The notes under the pieces were generated by a model. The model made no database searches and was not told where the DNA came from. It worked only from the letters and a program-made list of their open reading frames with translations. Positions 24,158 through 33,799 of a stretch of DNA of 64,000 nucleotides are shown piece by piece. Position 1 is the first letter of the stretch. Every line of letters starts with the position of its first letter. The translations under genes were made by a program, and so were the position numbers. The DNA is taken from assembly GCF_003334765.1 (NCBI RefSeq), contig NZ_QOWT01000002.1; one strand, written 5' to 3'. Origin of the DNA: Escherichia coli (GTDB taxonomy: Bacteria > Pseudomonadota > Gammaproteobacteria > Enterobacterales > Enterobacteriaceae).

Positions 24158-24241
24158 TTAATTTCGATTATTTTTCCCGGATGGAAAATTCTTAGAAACC
24201 GATCACATACAGCTGCATTTATTAAGGTTATCATCCGTTTC

Positions 24242-24328
24242 GCTGAAAAACATAACCCATAAAATGCTAGCTGTACCAGGAACCACCTCCTTAGCCTGTG
24301 TAATCTCCCTTACACGGGCTTATTTTTT
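24242..24328 (+). ncRNA. cyaR: CyaR (RyeE) Hfq-dependent sRNA
   Basis: gctgaaaaacataacccataaaatgctagctgtaccaggaaccacctccttagcctgtgtaatctcccttacacgggcttatttttt matches the CyaR sequence as I remember it, including the terminator hairpin and U-tail. Confidence 0.8.
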
Positions 24329-24487
24329 TATGCATAAGCCCTATCTCTGGTAACCGTCTTCCATTGACCACATCGATAGAATCCTCCTTCATAGCACGAT
24401 GCCTTTCACTTATCGGCATCGTGCTCCCACAGGTTCCGGCTACGCACAGCCAGAACGCGCATATTTGACGCTTACCAAAAAATATTC

Positions 24488-24805
24488 TCACTCTCCACAT
24501 TTGAATGTCAGACGAGCGACACCATGTAATCCTACACCTTCTGTCTTCAGCTCAACTATTTGCATTTTTTTGCCCTGAGTAACACAGAAATGAGTTGCAT
24601 CATTTTTTACTATATTTTCTGCACCAGATATTCTGCCCCTGGCTAAAGAAGCTTCGGCTTCGGTGTAGTATTGGTTATCGAGTTTACGCTGAATATTACT
24701 TTTATATGCAAGACCAAATTTACCGATACTTGTCTCATCATTATGCACAGCACAACCAGACATAATAAAAATACTAATTAATGATATAGCAGCTATCTTT
24801 TTCAT
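24488..24805 (-). CDS. yegR: Small lipoprotein-like protein YegR
   Basis: 105 aa from MKKIAAISLISIFIMSGCAVHND (lipobox-like signal peptide); AT-rich context. Confidence 0.8.
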   Translation of the reverse strand: MKKIAAISLISIFIMSGCAVHNDETSIGKFGLAYKSNIQRKLDNQYYTEAEASLARGRISGAENIVKNDATHFCVTQGKKMQIVELKTEGVGLHGVARLTFKCGE

Positions 24806-25209
24806 CTCACCTTCCCCCATTAAATACCAACGACACTCTCTAGTGTTTAAATATAATAATGGCATGATTATTATAATTGAATAGGATTATAATAAATGTT
24901 CTGTACAACATTTCCTACATAAGTAGGAATTACGAACATGGAGGCCCTTCCGGGTAACTCCATGAGGGCTTTAATATATTATATTGAAGATGCCACCGTT
25001 TAGTTGAATATTAGGTATATTCTCTTTTTTGAAATTTATCGGTGGCTGCCGTTAGTATTCGCTGTCCCCATTGCAAGCTCCTGGTGGTAACCACTGAATC
25101 CTCCATACTTGAACTGACTTTTATCCTCCGACTTTCATCCTGTTCTGACTCCACCTTTTGTTTTCTGCTCTACACTATCTACAGACCAATCATAAAGGCA
25201 CATACGATC

Positions 25210-26109
25210 ATGGCAGAATTTCCCGCCAGCTTACTGATTCTTAATGGCAAAAGTACTGACAATTTACCCTTGCGCGAAGCAATTATGCTGTTGCGTGAGG
25301 AAGGAATGACGATCCATGTGCGGGTCACCTGGGAGAAAGGCGATGCCGCACGATATGTAGAGGAGGCCCGGAAGTTGGGCGTCGCAACGGTGATTGCCGG
25401 TGGTGGCGATGGCACCATTAATGAAGTTTCTACGGCGTTGATTCAGTGTGAGGGGGATGACATACCCGCGCTGGGAATTTTGCCATTAGGAACCGCCAAT
25501 GATTTTGCCACCAGTGTAGGGATTCCTGAGGCACTGGATAAGGCGCTGAAACTGGCAATTGCCGGTAACGCCATTGCGATAGATATGGCGCAGGTCAACA
25601 AACAAACCTGTTTTATTAATATGGCGACAGGCGGATTTGGGACGCGTATTACCACAGAAACGCCGGAAAAATTAAAAGCCGCGCTGGGTGGCGTCTCTTA
25701 CATCATTCATGGCTTAATGCGCATGGATACTCTGCAACCGGACCGTTGTGAAATCCGCGGTGAAAACTTTCACTGGCAAGGTGACGCCCTGGTCATTGGT
25801 ATTGGTAACGGGCGTCAGGCCGGTGGCGGTCAGCAATTGTGTCCGAACGCGTTAATTAACGATGGCTTGCTGCAACTGCGCATTTTTACCGGCGATGAAA
25901 TTCTTCCGGCTCTCGTATCAACCTTAAAATCTGACGAAGATAACCCGAATATTATCGAAGGCGCTTCGTCGTGGTTTGATATACAAGCCCCACACGAAAT
26001 CACTTTTAATCTTGATGGCGAACCGTTGAGTGGGCAAAACTTCCATATTGAAATACTTCCGGCGGCGTTGCGTTGTCGATTACCACCGGATTGTCCATTA
26101 TTGCGTTAA
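25210..26109 (+). CDS. yegS: Lipid kinase YegS (DAGK-catalytic family)
   Basis: 299 aa from [15 protein letters not shown] with the GGDGT motif; the ORF-track extension to 25042 is rejected. Confidence 0.9.
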
Positions 26110-26145: not shown

Positions 26146-26181
26146 ATGCCGGATGCGGTGTAAACACCTTATCCGGCATAC
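26146..26181. repeat. REP element
   Basis: atgccggatgcggtgtaaacaccttatccggcatac between convergent yegS and gatR. Confidence 0.6.
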
Positions 26182-26190
26182 AGAACAATA

Positions 26191-26970
26191 CTACACCGTA
26201 ATTAATTTCACCCGTGTCTTCTGCAATGCCAGTTTATCCACCTCTGACACAGCATCATCTGTAATAATAATGTCAATTTTTTCGATTGGCAGTACCTGAT
26301 TAAAACCGCGACGGTTAAATTTCGATGAATCGAGAACGGCAATCACTTTATTAGCGGCGGTGACCATTGCACCGCTAATCGAATAACCTTCATTAAAGGT
26401 CGTAATACCATTAACCGCATCAATACCATCAGCACCGACAAACATTAAATCGGCATTAATATCCTGCAATGAACGCTCGGCAATGGAACCATGCATCGAG
26501 CGCGTTTTATGGCGGACCGTGCCACCACAGACGACCAGAGTAATGTCTTTATTTTCGGAAAGGGCAAACGCTGCCGGGAGACTGTTGGTAATCACCGTGA
26601 TATTTTTAGCGGTCATTAATCCTTCGGCGATAAGCATTGTGGTACTTCCGCTGTCGAGAATAACGGTCATCCCTTCATGGATCATTTTGACTGCCGCCTG
26701 CGCTATTCTGTTTTTTGGCGCGCTGGCGAGCTGAAATCGCTCTTTAAACCCGACTTCCTGGGTCTCGGTTTCACTATTACCGGACATTATTTTCGCCGCA
26801 CCGCCATGAAAGCGCGTAACCACGCCTTTTTGTTCGAGAAAGCGCAAATCGGCACGGATTGTCGCTTCCGAGGCAGCAAATACTCCCGCCAGATCCTGAA
26901 CAAGCACGGTTCCCTGTTCATTCACTAATTGGATGATCTTATTCCTTCGCTCGAATGAATTCATCGTCAT
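26191..26970 (-). CDS. gatR: DeoR-family repressor of the galactitol operon GatR, uninterrupted
   Basis: 259-aa continuous ORF with an N-terminal HTH and a DeoR C-terminal sugar-phosphate binding domain. Confidence 0.88.
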   Translation of the reverse strand: MTMNSFERRNKIIQLVNEQGTVLVQDLAGVFAASEATIRADLRFLEQKGVVTRFHGGAAKIMSGNSETETQEVGFKERFQLASAPKNRIAQAAVKMIHEGMTVILDSGSTTMLIAEGLMTAKNITVITNSLPAAFALSENKDITLVVCGGTVRHKTRSMHGSIAERSLQDINADLMFVGADGIDAVNGITTFNEGYSISGAMVTAANKVIAVLDSSKFNRRGFNQVLPIEKIDIIITDDAVSEVDKLALQKTRVKLITV

Positions 26971-27069
26971 TTACCCATATTCAATTGTGGCTAGTGTAAA
27001 CGAAGGGGGACCATTGGTGAATGATCTGTTTTGCACAATACCGGTCCAGCATCACGCTGGCCCGCGGTT

Positions 27070-28110
27070 TCATGGAATGAGCAACACTTTGCCCGGCATG
27101 GCATTACGAGCGATGTCACGCACCGCCTGGGTGAAGCTTTCAAAGCTTCCACGGTGAGCGATTAATGGCTCCAGGCTTAACTTACGTTCTGTCAGCAACC
27201 GGCTCGCCGTTTCCCACTCCTGCCCCGGCCAAGGGCTGGAATAGTTCATCCAACTGCCGATAACCGTCAGCTCTTTACGCAATATTTTGCCAAACGTTGC
27301 CGATGTTAAATGCAGATCCTGATGCAACGTGCCCACCAGCGCCAGTTGGGCATGAGGACCGGCAATCTCTACCGCCAGTTCGACAGTTTGCGGTACGCCA
27401 GCCGTCTCGAGGATAAGCTGATTAAAACGCAGTTCGCGTAAAACGCTCTGCATTTGCGGCGCGCTCATTTCGCTACTGTTAAATGTTTGCATCGCACCGA
27501 AAGATTTTGCCAGTGCCAGTTTTTCTGAGCTAATGTCGATAGCCGTCACACTCTTTGCTCCCAGCGCGACAGCGCACTGAATAGCCAGCAGGCCAATGGT
27601 TCCGGCACCAATAATAATAACGTTTTTATTCTCACAACCTTGCGCTAAATGAAAAGCATGCAGACCAACGGTAATCGGCTCAATAAAAGCCCCATCCTCA
27701 ATAGGCATATCCGTGGGTAGAGCAAAGACATTTTTTCGCTTAACGACAATATATTCAGCAAATCCACCATCACGCCGCGAGCCAATAAAATCATATTTTG
27801 CGCACTGGGAATAAAACCCTTTCAGACACTCTGGACAAGTAAAACAGGGTAATAACGGCACACAGGCAACCGCATCGCCAGGGTGTAAATCATCAACACC
27901 GGATCCCACCGCATCAATATAGCCGCTAAATTCATGGCCTAACGTTATTGGATAATAATGTGCACCATTTTTAAATATCCTGGGTAAATCGGAACCACAT
28001 AAGCCCGAGCTGGCAATTTTTACCCGCACCTCATCCTGATGTTTAATTTCAGGAATGACGCTTTCTGCAACGCGCACGATACCATCAGTATCATTCACCA
28101 CTGATTTCAT
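27070..28110 (-). CDS. gatD: Galactitol-1-phosphate 5-dehydrogenase
   Basis: 346-aa Zn-dependent alcohol dehydrogenase family protein. Confidence 0.92.
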   Translation of the reverse strand: MKSVVNDTDGIVRVAESVIPEIKHQDEVRVKIASSGLCGSDLPRIFKNGAHYYPITLGHEFSGYIDAVGSGVDDLHPGDAVACVPLLPCFTCPECLKGFYSQCAKYDFIGSRRDGGFAEYIVVKRKNVFALPTDMPIEDGAFIEPITVGLHAFHLAQGCENKNVIIIGAGTIGLLAIQCAVALGAKSVTAIDISSEKLALAKSFGAMQTFNSSEMSAPQMQSVLRELRFNQLILETAGVPQTVELAVEIAGPHAQLALVGTLHQDLHLTSATFGKILRKELTVIGSWMNYSSPWPGQEWETASRLLTERKLSLEPLIAHRGSFESFTQAVRDIARNAMPGKVLLIP

Positions 28111-28157
28111 AAAAACTCCTGATTGTTAAGGGGGATAACCTCCCCCTCAGGTAAAAA

Positions 28158-29513
28158 TTATTCTGCGAGAACGACTTTCTCTTGTTTAATAAAGCCACGC
28201 GCTCTACGCCAGGTCATGAAAATACCGGTCAGATAAATTGCACCGATAATAATGAAACCGGGAATATTTTGCGGGGAGAAAACCTGAATCAGTAACCAGG
28301 TAATGGGAGAACCGCCCTGATCCATTGAAGCCACCATACCCCCGGCTTTTAACGCCCCAGCATTAGCCGCCAGTTGGGTGTGCAAACCAATAGTTTGCGT
28401 CGCGATCCACAGGGTGATGCTCATAATGATGACACCCGAGATTAAGGTGCGGAACAGATTTCCACGATGCACGGCGACCGCCATCGCCACGAAGAAGCCG
28501 ATGGTGGCAAGATCGCCAAACGGCAGCACCTGATTACCCGGCACACAAACAGCAATTAAAATGGTGAGTGGGATAAAAATCAGGCTTGCCGATACCACCG
28601 CCGTATGTCCCAGCAGCAACGCCGGATCAAGGCCAATCAGGAACTCCTGACCGCCGAACTTCGCCTGTAAACGACTACGAGCCTGCTTAGCGATGGGCGT
28701 TAAACCATCCATGATGGGTTTAATCACCCGTGGCATTAGCAGCATCACTGCCGCCGTTTTTACCGCCAGCTGCAATACACCTTTGACATCGTAACCCGCG
28801 AGGATGCCGATAATCAGCCCCATCACAAAACCCACGGTGACAGGCTCGCCAAATGGACCAAATTTGCGCTGAATATCGTCGGCGCTAAATTTAATTCGGT
28901 TAACGCCTGGGATTTTCTCGATGATAGCATCGACCAGCACCGCAATCGGCCCCATATACGCCGACGTACCGTGCGGAATAGCAATACCTTCCAGCTCAAA
29001 GAAATTTCGGGTATCGCGGGCAAACCAGTCGCCGAGCTTATAAACAAACGCCGCGTGAATTACCACACCTGCCATCCCTATCATCCATGAACCGGTTGCC
29101 AGATGCAGCAACGCGCCGGTGAAGGTCATATGCCAGATATTCCAGATATCAACATTTACCACCCGCATCATACGGGTCAGTAACATCGCCACGTTAACCA
29201 GAATCGCAATCGGAATCGCCACCAGCGCAATTTGCGACGCCCAGGTCATTGGTGAAGAGCCCGGCCAGCCAACATCGACCACATGCAGATTCAGGTCGAA
29301 ATTTTCCGCCATCGCTTTCGCCGCCGGGCCAATGGAATCCAGCATTAAGCCAATCACAAGGCCAATGCCAACAAAGCCAATCCCGATATGCAGACCCGCT
29401 TTAAAGCAATCGCCTGCCTTCATGCCTAATATTTTAGAAAAAATAATGATGACAATCGGCAGCATCACCGTAGGGCCGAGGTCGAGAATATAACGCATGA
29501 CTTCTGAAAACAT
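28158..29513 (-). CDS. gatC: PTS galactitol-specific EIIC
   Basis: 451-aa polytopic membrane protein. Confidence 0.92.
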   Translation of the reverse strand: MFSEVMRYILDLGPTVMLPIVIIIFSKILGMKAGDCFKAGLHIGIGFVGIGLVIGLMLDSIGPAAKAMAENFDLNLHVVDVGWPGSSPMTWASQIALVAIPIAILVNVAMLLTRMMRVVNVDIWNIWHMTFTGALLHLATGSWMIGMAGVVIHAAFVYKLGDWFARDTRNFFELEGIAIPHGTSAYMGPIAVLVDAIIEKIPGVNRIKFSADDIQRKFGPFGEPVTVGFVMGLIIGILAGYDVKGVLQLAVKTAAVMLLMPRVIKPIMDGLTPIAKQARSRLQAKFGGQEFLIGLDPALLLGHTAVVSASLIFIPLTILIAVCVPGNQVLPFGDLATIGFFVAMAVAVHRGNLFRTLISGVIIMSITLWIATQTIGLHTQLAANAGALKAGGMVASMDQGGSPITWLLIQVFSPQNIPGFIIIGAIYLTGIFMTWRRARGFIKQEKVVLAE

Positions 29514-29516
29514 AGG

Positions 29517-29801
29517 TCACCCCTGTAAGATAGTCAGAATTTTATTTTGTAATGCTTCGATACCGATACCAGAAATAAAAGGCATGCCGTGAACTAACGG
29601 AATATCGCCAAAACTACGATCCACTTTGGCAGTGGTGCATATCAAATGCACACCATCCATATAGGTTTCTATTTCATTAACCCGACACTGGATTAATTCA
29701 ACAGGAATATTATGATTCTGACACAACTCTTTAATTTCTTCCGCCGCCATCGTAGAGGTCGCAACCGCGCCTCCGCAAGCGACAATAATCTTGCGTTTCA
29801 T
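29517..29801 (-). CDS. gatB: PTS galactitol-specific EIIB
   Basis: 94-aa [19 protein letters not shown] with active-site Cys. Confidence 0.92.
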
Positions 29802-29831
29802 AAATAGTCCTTTTTATTGTTACAGAGGGAT

Positions 29832-30284
29832 TTATTCGTCTGAATCTAAAACATACTTTGTGAAGTATTCCTTTAACTGGGTTTCAGGAAGAGTGATTAG
29901 TGTCTCGACGATATCGGGCTGTTGTAACTTGCCAAATAAACAGCGTAAAAGTTTCAATTGCTGCTGCGGATTTTCCACAATCAACGCAATAACCAACGAT
30001 ACCGCCACGTCGTTATCATCATCCGCTTGCTGAAAATGAACTTTATTTGTTGGCCTTAACAGATAAATGGCTGACGACTTAGCATGAATCGCCTCACAAT
30101 GCGGTATTGCAATAGCGTGCTGCTCAAGCATTATCCCGGTAGGGAATTCTGCTTCTCTGGCAATTAATGCCTGTGGCCAGGTATCATGAACCACACCTTT
30201 GGCGAGCATCTCATTACCGATATGGGTTAAAACTTCGCTACGATCGACAAAAGAAATTCCGCTACGAACAAACAGGTTAGTCAT
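29832..30284 (-). CDS. gatA: PTS galactitol-specific EIIA
   Basis: 150-aa ORF. Confidence 0.92.
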   Translation of the reverse strand: MTNLFVRSGISFVDRSEVLTHIGNEMLAKGVVHDTWPQALIAREAEFPTGIMLEQHAIAIPHCEAIHAKSSAIYLLRPTNKVHFQQADDDNDVAVSLVIALIVENPQQQLKLLRCLFGKLQQPDIVETLITLPETQLKEYFTKYVLDSDE

Positions 30285-30293
30285 ATACCGTCC

Positions 30294-32493
<2,200 letters not shown>

Positions 32494-32606
32494 TTAAATA
32501 TCGAGATAACGATCACAAAAACAACAATATGAAAATTGTTCGAGGAGTGAAAGGCAAAAAAACGGCCTCCCGATAGGGAAGCCGTAGCAAAGTGCGCGTG
32601 TTTTTA

Positions 32607-32725
32607 TGCCGGATGCGGTGTAAACATACGTGGCAGTGCTATGTAGGCATGATAAGACGCTTCAGCGTCGCATCAGGCATAGGTTGCCGGATGCAGCGTA
32701 AACGCCTTATCCGTCCTACGGGGTG
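32607..32725. repeat. Cluster of REP elements (BIME) between fbaB and gatY
   Basis: Several copies or variants of gccggatgcggtgtaaac and cgcatcaggc palindromes. Confidence 0.6.
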
Positions 32726-32746
32726 GTGTTGTTCGTATAAGGCGTA

Positions 32747-33799
32747 TCAGGCGATAGTAATTTTGCTATCGAGATAAACGTCCTGCACGGCGTTAATCAG
32801 TTTCACGCCGTCAGCCATCGATTTCTTGAACGCTTTACGTCCAAGAATCAGCCCCATTCCGCCAGCGCGTTTGTTGATAACCGCAGTACGCACTGCATCA
32901 CTGAGGTCAGTTTCACCGCCCGCAGCACCGCCGGAGTTTATCAACCCAGCCCGGCCCATATAGCAGTTAGCTAACTGATAACGCACCAGATCAATCGGGT
33001 TTTCGCTGGTTAACTTGCTGTACACGCGATCGTCGGTATAACCGTAATTAATCGCTTTATAACCGCCGTTATTTTCCGCCATTTTCTGTTTGACGATGTC
33101 CGCGCCAATGGTCGCCGCCAGATGGTTCGCCTGACCAGTCAGGTCGGCGGAAACATGGTAATCAACGCCATCTTTCTTAAAGGCGGAGTTACGCAAATAG
33201 GCCCACAGCACTGTCACCATGCCCAGCTCGTGCGCACGTTCAAAAGCCGCAGAAATTTCTTCAATCTGGCGACGTGACTCTTCCGAGCCAAAATAGATAG
33301 TCGCACCAACCGCAACCGCGCCCATGTTGAACGCCTGCTCCACGCTGGCATACAGCGTTTGATCGTAGGTATTCGGGTAACTTAGCGTCTCGTTGTGATT
33401 AAGTTTGACGAGGAATGGAATGCGATGCGCATAACGCCGCGATACCGACGCCAGCACGCCGTAAGTTGACGCCACACAGTTACAGCCCGCTTCGATCGCC
33501 AGTTCAACAATGTTTTTCGGGTCAAAGTAGAGCGGGTTAGCAGCAAATGAAGCTCCGGCAGAGTGCTCAACGCCCTGGTCAACCGGCAGAATAGAAAGAT
33601 ATCCTGTGCCAGCCAGACGCCCGGTGTTGTACAACGTCTGCATATTACGTAACACCGCAGGCGGGCGATTATTGTCAATCATCACGCGGTCTACGTAGTC
33701 ATGTCCGGGGAGATAAAGCTGGTCAGAAGGAATAGTCATACAACGGTGCTGTAAAAGGTTGTCGGCGTCTTTGCCAAGCAACTGCGCAATATCTGTCAT
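32747..33799 (-). CDS. fbaB: Fructose-bisphosphate aldolase class I
   Basis: 350 aa from [18 protein letters not shown]; the ORF-track 5' extension is rejected. Confidence 0.92.

Follow-up and report, generated by a model that had tools for sequence, protein, structure and literature searches.

The small RNA gene cyaR lies between trhP (yegQ) and yegR in a stretch of 64,000 nucleotides of Escherichia coli DNA (RefSeq assembly GCF_003334765.1, contig NZ_QOWT01000002.1), which was analysed at its full length and is called the window from here. At positions 24240–24325 of the plus strand, the Rfam covariance model CyaR_RyeE (RF00112) scores 100.7 bits, above its gathering score of 47, and is matched from end to end (positions 1–85), with the terminator present. 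The K-12 annotation of cyaR (b4438) projects onto exactly 24242–24328, the interval at which a preliminary description of this DNA had recognised CyaR, and over 24000–24328 the window is 98.5% identical to K-12. A terminator scan and RNA folding place the terminator hairpin at 24293–24320, with the T-run directly after it. For K-12 cyaR, a cAMP-CRP-dependent promoter and Hfq binding are known. The following features were assigned:

22796–24157, plus strand: trhP (yegQ), conserved neighbour of cyaR on the upstream side (453-aa ORF; annotated in matching E. coli genomes)
24242–24328, plus strand: cyaR, Hfq-binding sRNA CyaR/RyeE (Rfam RF00112, K-12 b4438 mapping, fold with the expected terminator)
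24293–24328, plus strand: CyaR intrinsic terminator with 11-bp stem, 6-nt loop and T-run (terminator scan and RNA fold)
24302–24328, no strand: P2 attB core (presumably locI), single and unoccupied, AATCTCCCTTACACGGGCTTATTTTTT (27/27 identity to the annotated P2 attP core)
24330–25128, no strand: E. coli-specific 799-bp segment at the right core edge, absent in other Escherichia lineages and read as a probable ancient P2-type prophage scar
24342–24376, no strand: probable P2 P-arm relic (local alignment to the P2 P arm, P2 annotation, conserved arm block)
24393–24425, no strand: perfect hairpin with 11-bp stem and 11-nt loop, no U-tract on either strand (fold)
24488–24805, minus strand: yegR, 105-aa predicted lipoprotein (PF27694), inside the probable scar (ORF, annotation, homolog distribution)
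24806–25045, no strand: AT-rich region upstream of yegR in the probable scar, with promoter-like sites and no recognisable phage gene remnant
25046–25128, no strand: probable decayed attR, with a P′-proximal part (about 25046–25097), a core relic (about 25098–25121) and the ancestral 7-nt flank (alignment to a model attR)
25210–26109, plus strand: yegS, lipid kinase, ancestral neighbour downstream of cyaR (ORF, translation MAEFPASLL..., annotation)

The stop codon of yegR occupies 24488–24490 on the minus strand, and the 105-aa form spans 24488–24805. Since cyaR ends at 24328 and the yegR stop starts at 24488, the spacer 24329–24487 measures 159 nt, in line with the preliminary description, which had placed yegR next to cyaR at a distance of about 160 bp. 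It had also called the flank AT-rich. This applies to yegR (36.8% GC) and to the stretch upstream of it (24806–25128, 37.2%) but not to the spacer with 47.8%; trhP has 54.4%. The hairpin at 24393–24425, located between the P-arm relic and the yegR stop, folds with z-scores of −5.8 on the plus and −6.3 on the minus strand and was not called as a terminator in the terminator scan. A derivation from the P2 ogr terminator would fit by position but was rejected, as there is no sequence similarity.

An unoccupied P2 attachment site at the 3′ end of cyaR

Window positions 24302–24328 are identical at 27/27 bases to the annotated attP core of phage P2 (AF063097, 24356–24382), which in the phage record is flanked by annotated binding sites for Int, IHF and Cox. 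On the host side, the same 27 bp run from the loop of the CyaR terminator through the 3′ half of its stem to the T-run. A search for a direct repeat that would mark a past excision found one copy of the core and no second one in the whole 64-kb window, even with up to 6 mismatches. The 27/27 identity and the single copy therefore identify an unoccupied attB, the configuration that the preliminary description had proposed from the absence of ogrK and yegZ. In strain C122, which we take to be a derivative of E. coli C, the junction is contiguous as in the window and identical at 136/136 bases. Barreiro and Haggård-Ljungquist reportedly described the preferred P2 site, locI, in E. coli C in 1992, and the unoccupied attB at 24302–24328 is presumably this locI. 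Both have the 27-bp core identical to attP, both lie at the cyaR 3′ end in the interval from trhP/yegQ to yegR, and the core itself does not differ between locI of E. coli C and the window. An unoccupied P2 attB at the 3′ end of cyaR is a known and ordinary state.

Phage genes were sought next to the core. Three ORFs of 69, 59 and 34 aa that overlap 24329–24487 matched no phage family in PHROGs, tblastn with P2 Int, Ogr and D gave no match in the spacer, and beyond the 27-mer the spacer matches only two records in the phage collection, both of which contain host flank. The statement of the preliminary description that there are no phage-derived genes here is hence borne out for the spacer, whose P-arm relic is non-coding, but may not strictly hold for yegR, if the segment that contains this gene is the scar of a prophage (see below).

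State of the site across E. coli and the K-12 remnant

The locus was present in 5424 of 5426 complete E. coli genomes surveyed. A contiguous 136-bp junction was found in about 4203/5424, a count that includes a few short remnants such as the one in BS-01. When matches were joined across inserts of up to about 950 bp, a 901-bp query was recovered in 4566 genomes; set against the 4203 contiguous junctions, this leaves about 363 genomes with a remnant of the K-12 size. In about 858 of the 5424 genomes the insert is larger, and there the match starts exactly at window position 24302, the first base of the core (query position 303; 6/6 sampled rows). P2-like prophages thus occupy the cyaR site in some 16% of these complete genomes. 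The insert of strain EC50 consists of a full P2-like gene set whose integrase adjoins attR and yegR, and in strain 7/2 a site-specific integrase adjoins attR–yegR in the same way. Most E. coli genomes, about three quarters, have the site free, and P2-like phages still make use of it. With the contiguous junction as the majority configuration, K-12 is the exception, not the window.

In K-12 MG1655, the interval between cyaR and yegR holds 629 bp that the annotation names 'cryptic prophage PR-X' and that comprise ogrK and the pseudogene yegZ, the kind of P2-like remnant that the preliminary description had given for K-12. PR-X starts inside the cyaR 3′ end. On alignment to K-12, window positions 24000–24328 match through the end of cyaR and 24311–25000 match from just past PR-X, with an overlap of 18 nt, so that the spacing of the two genes differs between the reference and the window. 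In the pairwise comparison, an 18-bp direct repeat, TACACGGGCTTATTTTTT, bounds PR-X, with two copies in K-12 and one in the window. The K-12 state would have arisen from a P2-like prophage that integrated at locI and then decayed to 629 bp, namely ogrK and a gene D fragment. The right boundary of PR-X (L001 3304–3330) keeps the last 18 of the 27 core bases, fused to gene-D-derived sequence, so the remnant arose when a deletion, or an event of that kind, ended within attR, and not by plain truncation.

A 799-bp segment specific to E. coli

A scan for cyaR with one genome per species yielded at least 120 loci; E. fergusonii and the E. coli species representative are not among them. Three Escherichia lineages have a short junction: L078, which is deposited as E. 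coli E69 and stands as a separate species representative, E. whittamii (L110) and Escherichia sp. E1V33 (L127). Their sequence matches the window up to 24328–24333 and, after 6–8 nt, again from 25129 (25119 in L127). What follows the terminator in these lineages is the promoter region of yegS, where the window has 24330–25128. Among the matches listed, 77/111 loci with sufficient downstream sequence have yegS on the same strand after cyaR, and none of the 111 has yegR at the cyaR locus; yegS as the direct neighbour of cyaR is thus common throughout Enterobacterales. The distance from cyaR to yegS in these matches has a median of 137 nt, compared with 882 nt in the window.

When related genomes are compared, 24330–25128 thus behaves as a block that is either present or absent. 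Its absence from the sister Escherichia lineages and from the other sampled genera identifies it as a derived insertion at the right core edge. PHROGs, tblastn and sensitive blastn searches found no remnant of int, ogr, D or a structural gene in the 799 bp. The segment is therefore best termed a scar, or an att relic with a retained gene, and not a gene-bearing cryptic prophage.

A P-arm relic on the left

Directly to the right of the core, window positions 24342–24376 match P2 (L004 1556–1590) at 83% identity over about 35–36 nt in a multiple alignment, including an exact 15-mer, CATTGACCACATCGA, at 24362–24376. The local alignment to the P2 P arm scores 38, versus 15.5 ± 2.2 for dinucleotide shuffles (0/2000 reach the score; z ≈ 10). 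Three control pairings, with the wrong side or the wrong arm, stayed at chance; the match is side-specific. P2 carries an annotated Int P-arm binding site at exactly the position that is matched by the window relic. The arm repeats of P2-type Int follow the consensus tgTGGaCa (PMC3448106). One intact predicted arm-type Int site, TGTGGTCA, lies at 24365–24372 on the minus strand, 37 nt from the core, and is identical to the distal P-arm repeat of P2, while the second arm repeat of the relic is decayed. The left side of the segment accordingly has the order of an attL: the core, then P-arm sequence bearing an arm-type Int site. In a minority variant of E. coli (YL03, 7/2), 11 further nt match the GGATTTAT block of phages. 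PR-X and the intact prophages always insert between the core and this old relic.

A probable decayed attR on the right

For the right end, a model attR was composed of the 60 P′-proximal nt of P2, the core and the ancestral 7-nt flank. Window positions 25046–25128 are collinear with this model from end to end, at an identity of about 66%. With +1/−1 scoring, the alignment reaches 22, versus 8.5 ± 1.6 in 5000 dinucleotide shuffles, none of which attains this value; among 1412 natural 89-nt segments of the window, the maximum was 16. Under a stricter scoring, z is 3.5 and 47/5000 shuffles reach the observed score. Against the real attR of Escherichia albertii, the score of 25046–25128 was reached by 2/5000 shuffles. 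In other E. coli lineages, the right end has a run of 5–6 T at the position expected for the T-run of the core. These alignments make it probable that 25046–25128 is a decayed attR.

A comparison of the right junction with the 27-mer core alone, under strict matching, gave no significant result; the signal appears only with the whole attR and a scoring that tolerates divergence. At the right junction of the inserted segment (25116–25140), there is also a 12-nt near-repeat, GACTTTTATCCT / GACTTTCATCCT, which may be only the decayed T-run plus the ancestral flank.

The relics differ in their identity to P2, about 83% on the left and about 66% on the right. Because of this different divergence, they may stem from two separate events.

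A parallel in E. albertii and use of the site in other genera

In E. albertii (L019), the locus consists of cyaR, a truncated P arm, about 3.3 kb with three ORFs, an attR and the yegS flank, without yegR. The middle ORF is a clear CdtB (364 bits). The attR is 90.7% identical to P2 P′-proximal sequence plus core and directly abuts the ancestral yegS flank. The interval L019 4956–8330 keeps cdtA/B/C-like ORFs between the truncated P arm and the well-preserved attR. A counterpart of window positions 26181–32684 (the gat region) is missing at the E. albertii locus. According to Svab et al. 2013, as cited in PMC5136569, P2-like prophages carry cdt-V operons. Together, this architecture and the carriage of cdt indicate that the backbone of a P2-type prophage at this site can disappear while cargo between attL and attR is retained.

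The E. albertii locus and the E. coli segment would share the order cyaR, attL and P arm, then cargo, then P′-proximal sequence, attR and yegS, with the backbone lost. They differ in age, the E. albertii form being the younger, with an attR 90.7% identical to P2 versus about 66% for the probable attR of E. coli, and in cargo, which is a known toxin in E. albertii whereas yegR has no demonstrated phage link. By analogy, we infer an architecture of the E. albertii type for yegR in E. coli.

Intact P2-type P arms were seen directly after cyaR in Citrobacter and Enterobacter (L015, L030, L052, L060, L099, L100), and the P2-like Yersinia phage vB_YenM_42.18 (L012) has a core similar to the terminator of CyaR. 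Use of the 3′ end of cyaR as an att site therefore extends across genera.

The yegR gene

The PF27694 family of YegR is almost confined to E. coli and Shigella. The few divergent homologs elsewhere lie in unrelated chromosomal or IS-flanked contexts, not in phages, and a phage origin of yegR is therefore unproven. Phage cargo was considered as a source of YegR and set aside, as tblastn and blastn against 50,697 phage records matched only two records, both with host flank. One PHROG, phrog_21109, matches YegR and is in effect the YegR family; it probably derives from prophage calls that overran the cyaR–yegR junction. Host flank comprising the spacer and yegR is contained in the phage records ON470606.1 (vB_EcoM-720R8; 31977–32984) and AY639599.1 (Phage TP). 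Such flank in phage records is a pitfall for prophage-boundary and moron calling. Titles and abstracts of the literature that mentions yegR do not address its origin.

Two minor observations concern the ends of the gene. Around the yegR start, window positions 24746–24838 have about 70% similarity over about 95 nt to the interior of a P2 orf30 homolog (L002 891–983). None of 1000 shuffles reaches this score, and it stands at 33 versus a maximum of 26 in 234 AT-rich natural tiles. The similarity is collinear with the scar but antisense to the yegR coding strand, and standard blastn gave no match. In E. coli Ecol_745 (L003), about 170 extra AT-rich nt are present directly 3′ of the yegR stop (at about window 24474–24480). 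This extra stretch occurs in 5/40 evenly sampled genomes and, by eye, holds a possible 42-aa ORF on the minus strand.

Origin of the segment

The lineage distribution of the segment, the P-arm relic on its left, its attR-like right end and the parallel in E. albertii point to a P2-type scar: judged from these sequence comparisons, an old scar of P2 type that includes yegR is probably present in E. coli. As a whole, we consider it very probable that the window holds the standard unoccupied P2 locI and that the following 799 bp, including yegR, were left by a P2-type integration of much greater age. The site is 'unoccupied' in the sense that no recent prophage sits in it, which does not make it pristine.

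A pristine attB, with a chance likeness of its flank to P2 arms and yegR as an ordinary chromosomal neighbour, appears very unlikely to us. It would agree with the lack of phage genes in the segment and with the weakness of the attR relic under strict scoring. However, chance hardly accounts for an exact 15-nt match within 83% identity over 36 nt on the correct side of the core, at a score that 0/2000 shuffles reached and with controls at chance. Furthermore, three Escherichia lineages lack the segment with sharply defined breakpoints, the E. albertii attR abuts yegS, and the other sampled genera lack yegR at this locus among the matches listed.

Similarity alone gives no direction, and the transfer might have gone the other way, with an event such as aberrant excision giving P2-type phages a P arm that originated beside cyaR in E. 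coli. We regard this as highly improbable. The arm block GGATTTAT...GTCCACA...G[AT]CCACATCGA recurs in Wphi, fiAA91-ss, P2_T22 and P2_AC1, although the sequence at the core position of these phages is unrelated to cyaR, and it occurs in Klebsiella and Yersinia phages as well. A block kept in phages with unrelated cores belongs to the phage lineage, which makes the host flank the copy. In addition, the Int arm consensus shared across the family (PMC3448106) lies within the block, and the sister Escherichia lineages lack the host flank.

Of similarly slight probability is an ancestral yegR segment that was deleted independently in the other Escherichia lineages and genera. Small intergenic stretches are often lost, and the sample was a limited one of at least 120 species. 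Nevertheless, many independent deletions with identical end points would be required: among the matches listed, yegS lies at most 150 nt from cyaR in 42 species, and the species of this group keep a conserved TTTCATCCTGTTCT motif directly after the terminator. Moreover, the E. albertii attR sits directly on the ancestral flank, and the segment has an att-type relic at its left end and a probable one at its right.

The preliminary description had proposed a search for the trace of a past excision, and a P-arm piece beside the core would be a plausible leftover if a P2 prophage had been imprecisely excised not long ago in the lineage of this strain. Such an event has a negligible probability, given that the relic is the same in 6/6 E. 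coli sequences (the window, K-12, EC50, Ecol_745, 7/2 and YL03), including those where it lies to the right of PR-X or of an intact prophage, that its divergence from modern arms amounts to about 17% plus an indel, and that the window has a single core copy.

Proposed history of the locus

P2 Int is a tyrosine recombinase that, together with IHF, recombines the 27-bp attP core with attB; excision needs Cox. From what is known of P2, Int and IHF would recombine the attP and locI cores at the sequence described here. The phage supplies a copy of the 3′ part of the terminator, so attL rebuilds cyaR and lysogeny spares the sRNA.

Under the preferred reading of an ancient integration, an early P2-type phage in the E. 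coli lineage would have left the 799 bp that now separate the core from the promoter region of yegS. Selection on the CyaR terminator, of which it forms part, would have kept the left core copy intact. The right core copy and the adjoining phage DNA would have decayed, with a P-arm piece persisting beside the left core. The gene yegR may have been cargo of the old element or a later arrival, and would have been retained in either case. The preserved attL core could then have served as attB for later P2-type phages, as represented by PR-X and the intact prophages.

PR-X and the putative older scar share the att site, the parent phage type, the decayed state and an intact CyaR. PR-X differs in being young, with a P arm 96.7% identical to P2 (record 'Phage TP') and with ogr and a D fragment retained, and it is confined to the approximately 363 K-12-like genomes, whereas the window scar would be older, is fixed in E. 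coli and lacks phage genes. The latter is not part of the interval annotated as PR-X. K-12 has both, one within the other: its annotated PR-X would sit inside an older, unannotated P2-type scar. Neither the K-12 PR-X annotation nor the literature searched covers this older scar.

Phages are known to use the 3′ ends of RNA genes as att sites, such as ssrA in the case of Fels-2/SopEΦ and sdsR in Salmonella (PMC3448106, PMC3333887), and P2-type phages more often use non-tRNA sites (PMC3448106). As at these sRNA and tRNA sites, the core in the window duplicates the 3′ end of a structured RNA gene that survives integration, and successive integrations leave layered remnants downstream; the difference is that the RNA is CyaR and the phage family the P2 type. 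The older scar would be a small addition to the well-known layering of prophage remnants at att sites in RNA genes.

In a more far-reaching version, which we hold to be unlikely, the attB preferred by P2 is itself a surviving ancient attL, the candidate Int site at 24365–24372 could still bind Int, and yegR is a domesticated phage cargo gene. If so, the retained arm site could alter the efficiency or the direction of P2 recombination at locI and help to explain the site preference.

Several practical points follow for this strain and for prophage annotation. With P2 locI free, unlike in K-12, the state of the window helps to predict where P2-like phages lysogenise, and the 3′ flank of CyaR differs here from the K-12 reference. 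The reading as a scar would give an origin to yegR, a species-restricted orphan, and to its AT-rich surroundings. By this account, the terminator of an RNA gene can protect one att copy over very long periods as its partner decays, so that the hotspot is reused and remnants accumulate downstream. 'Empty' att sites should accordingly be treated with caution and not as neutral baselines for prophage-boundary calling.

Further observations in the window

Three tandem Sib antitoxin RNAs (RF00113, 142–150 bits each) were detected on the plus strand at 10075–10223, 10410–10552 and 10738–10880. The corresponding K-12 locus has two (sibA and sibB), and the strain may therefore carry an extra copy of the Ibs/Sib toxin-antitoxin system. 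An OrzO-P antitoxin RNA (RF02083, 101 bits) at 59643–59718 on the plus strand implies a type I toxin-antitoxin locus of the zorO/orzO kind, which is not known to be present in K-12. The gatR gene at 26191–26970 on the minus strand is an intact ORF of 259 aa in the window, while in K-12 it is split by IS3E.
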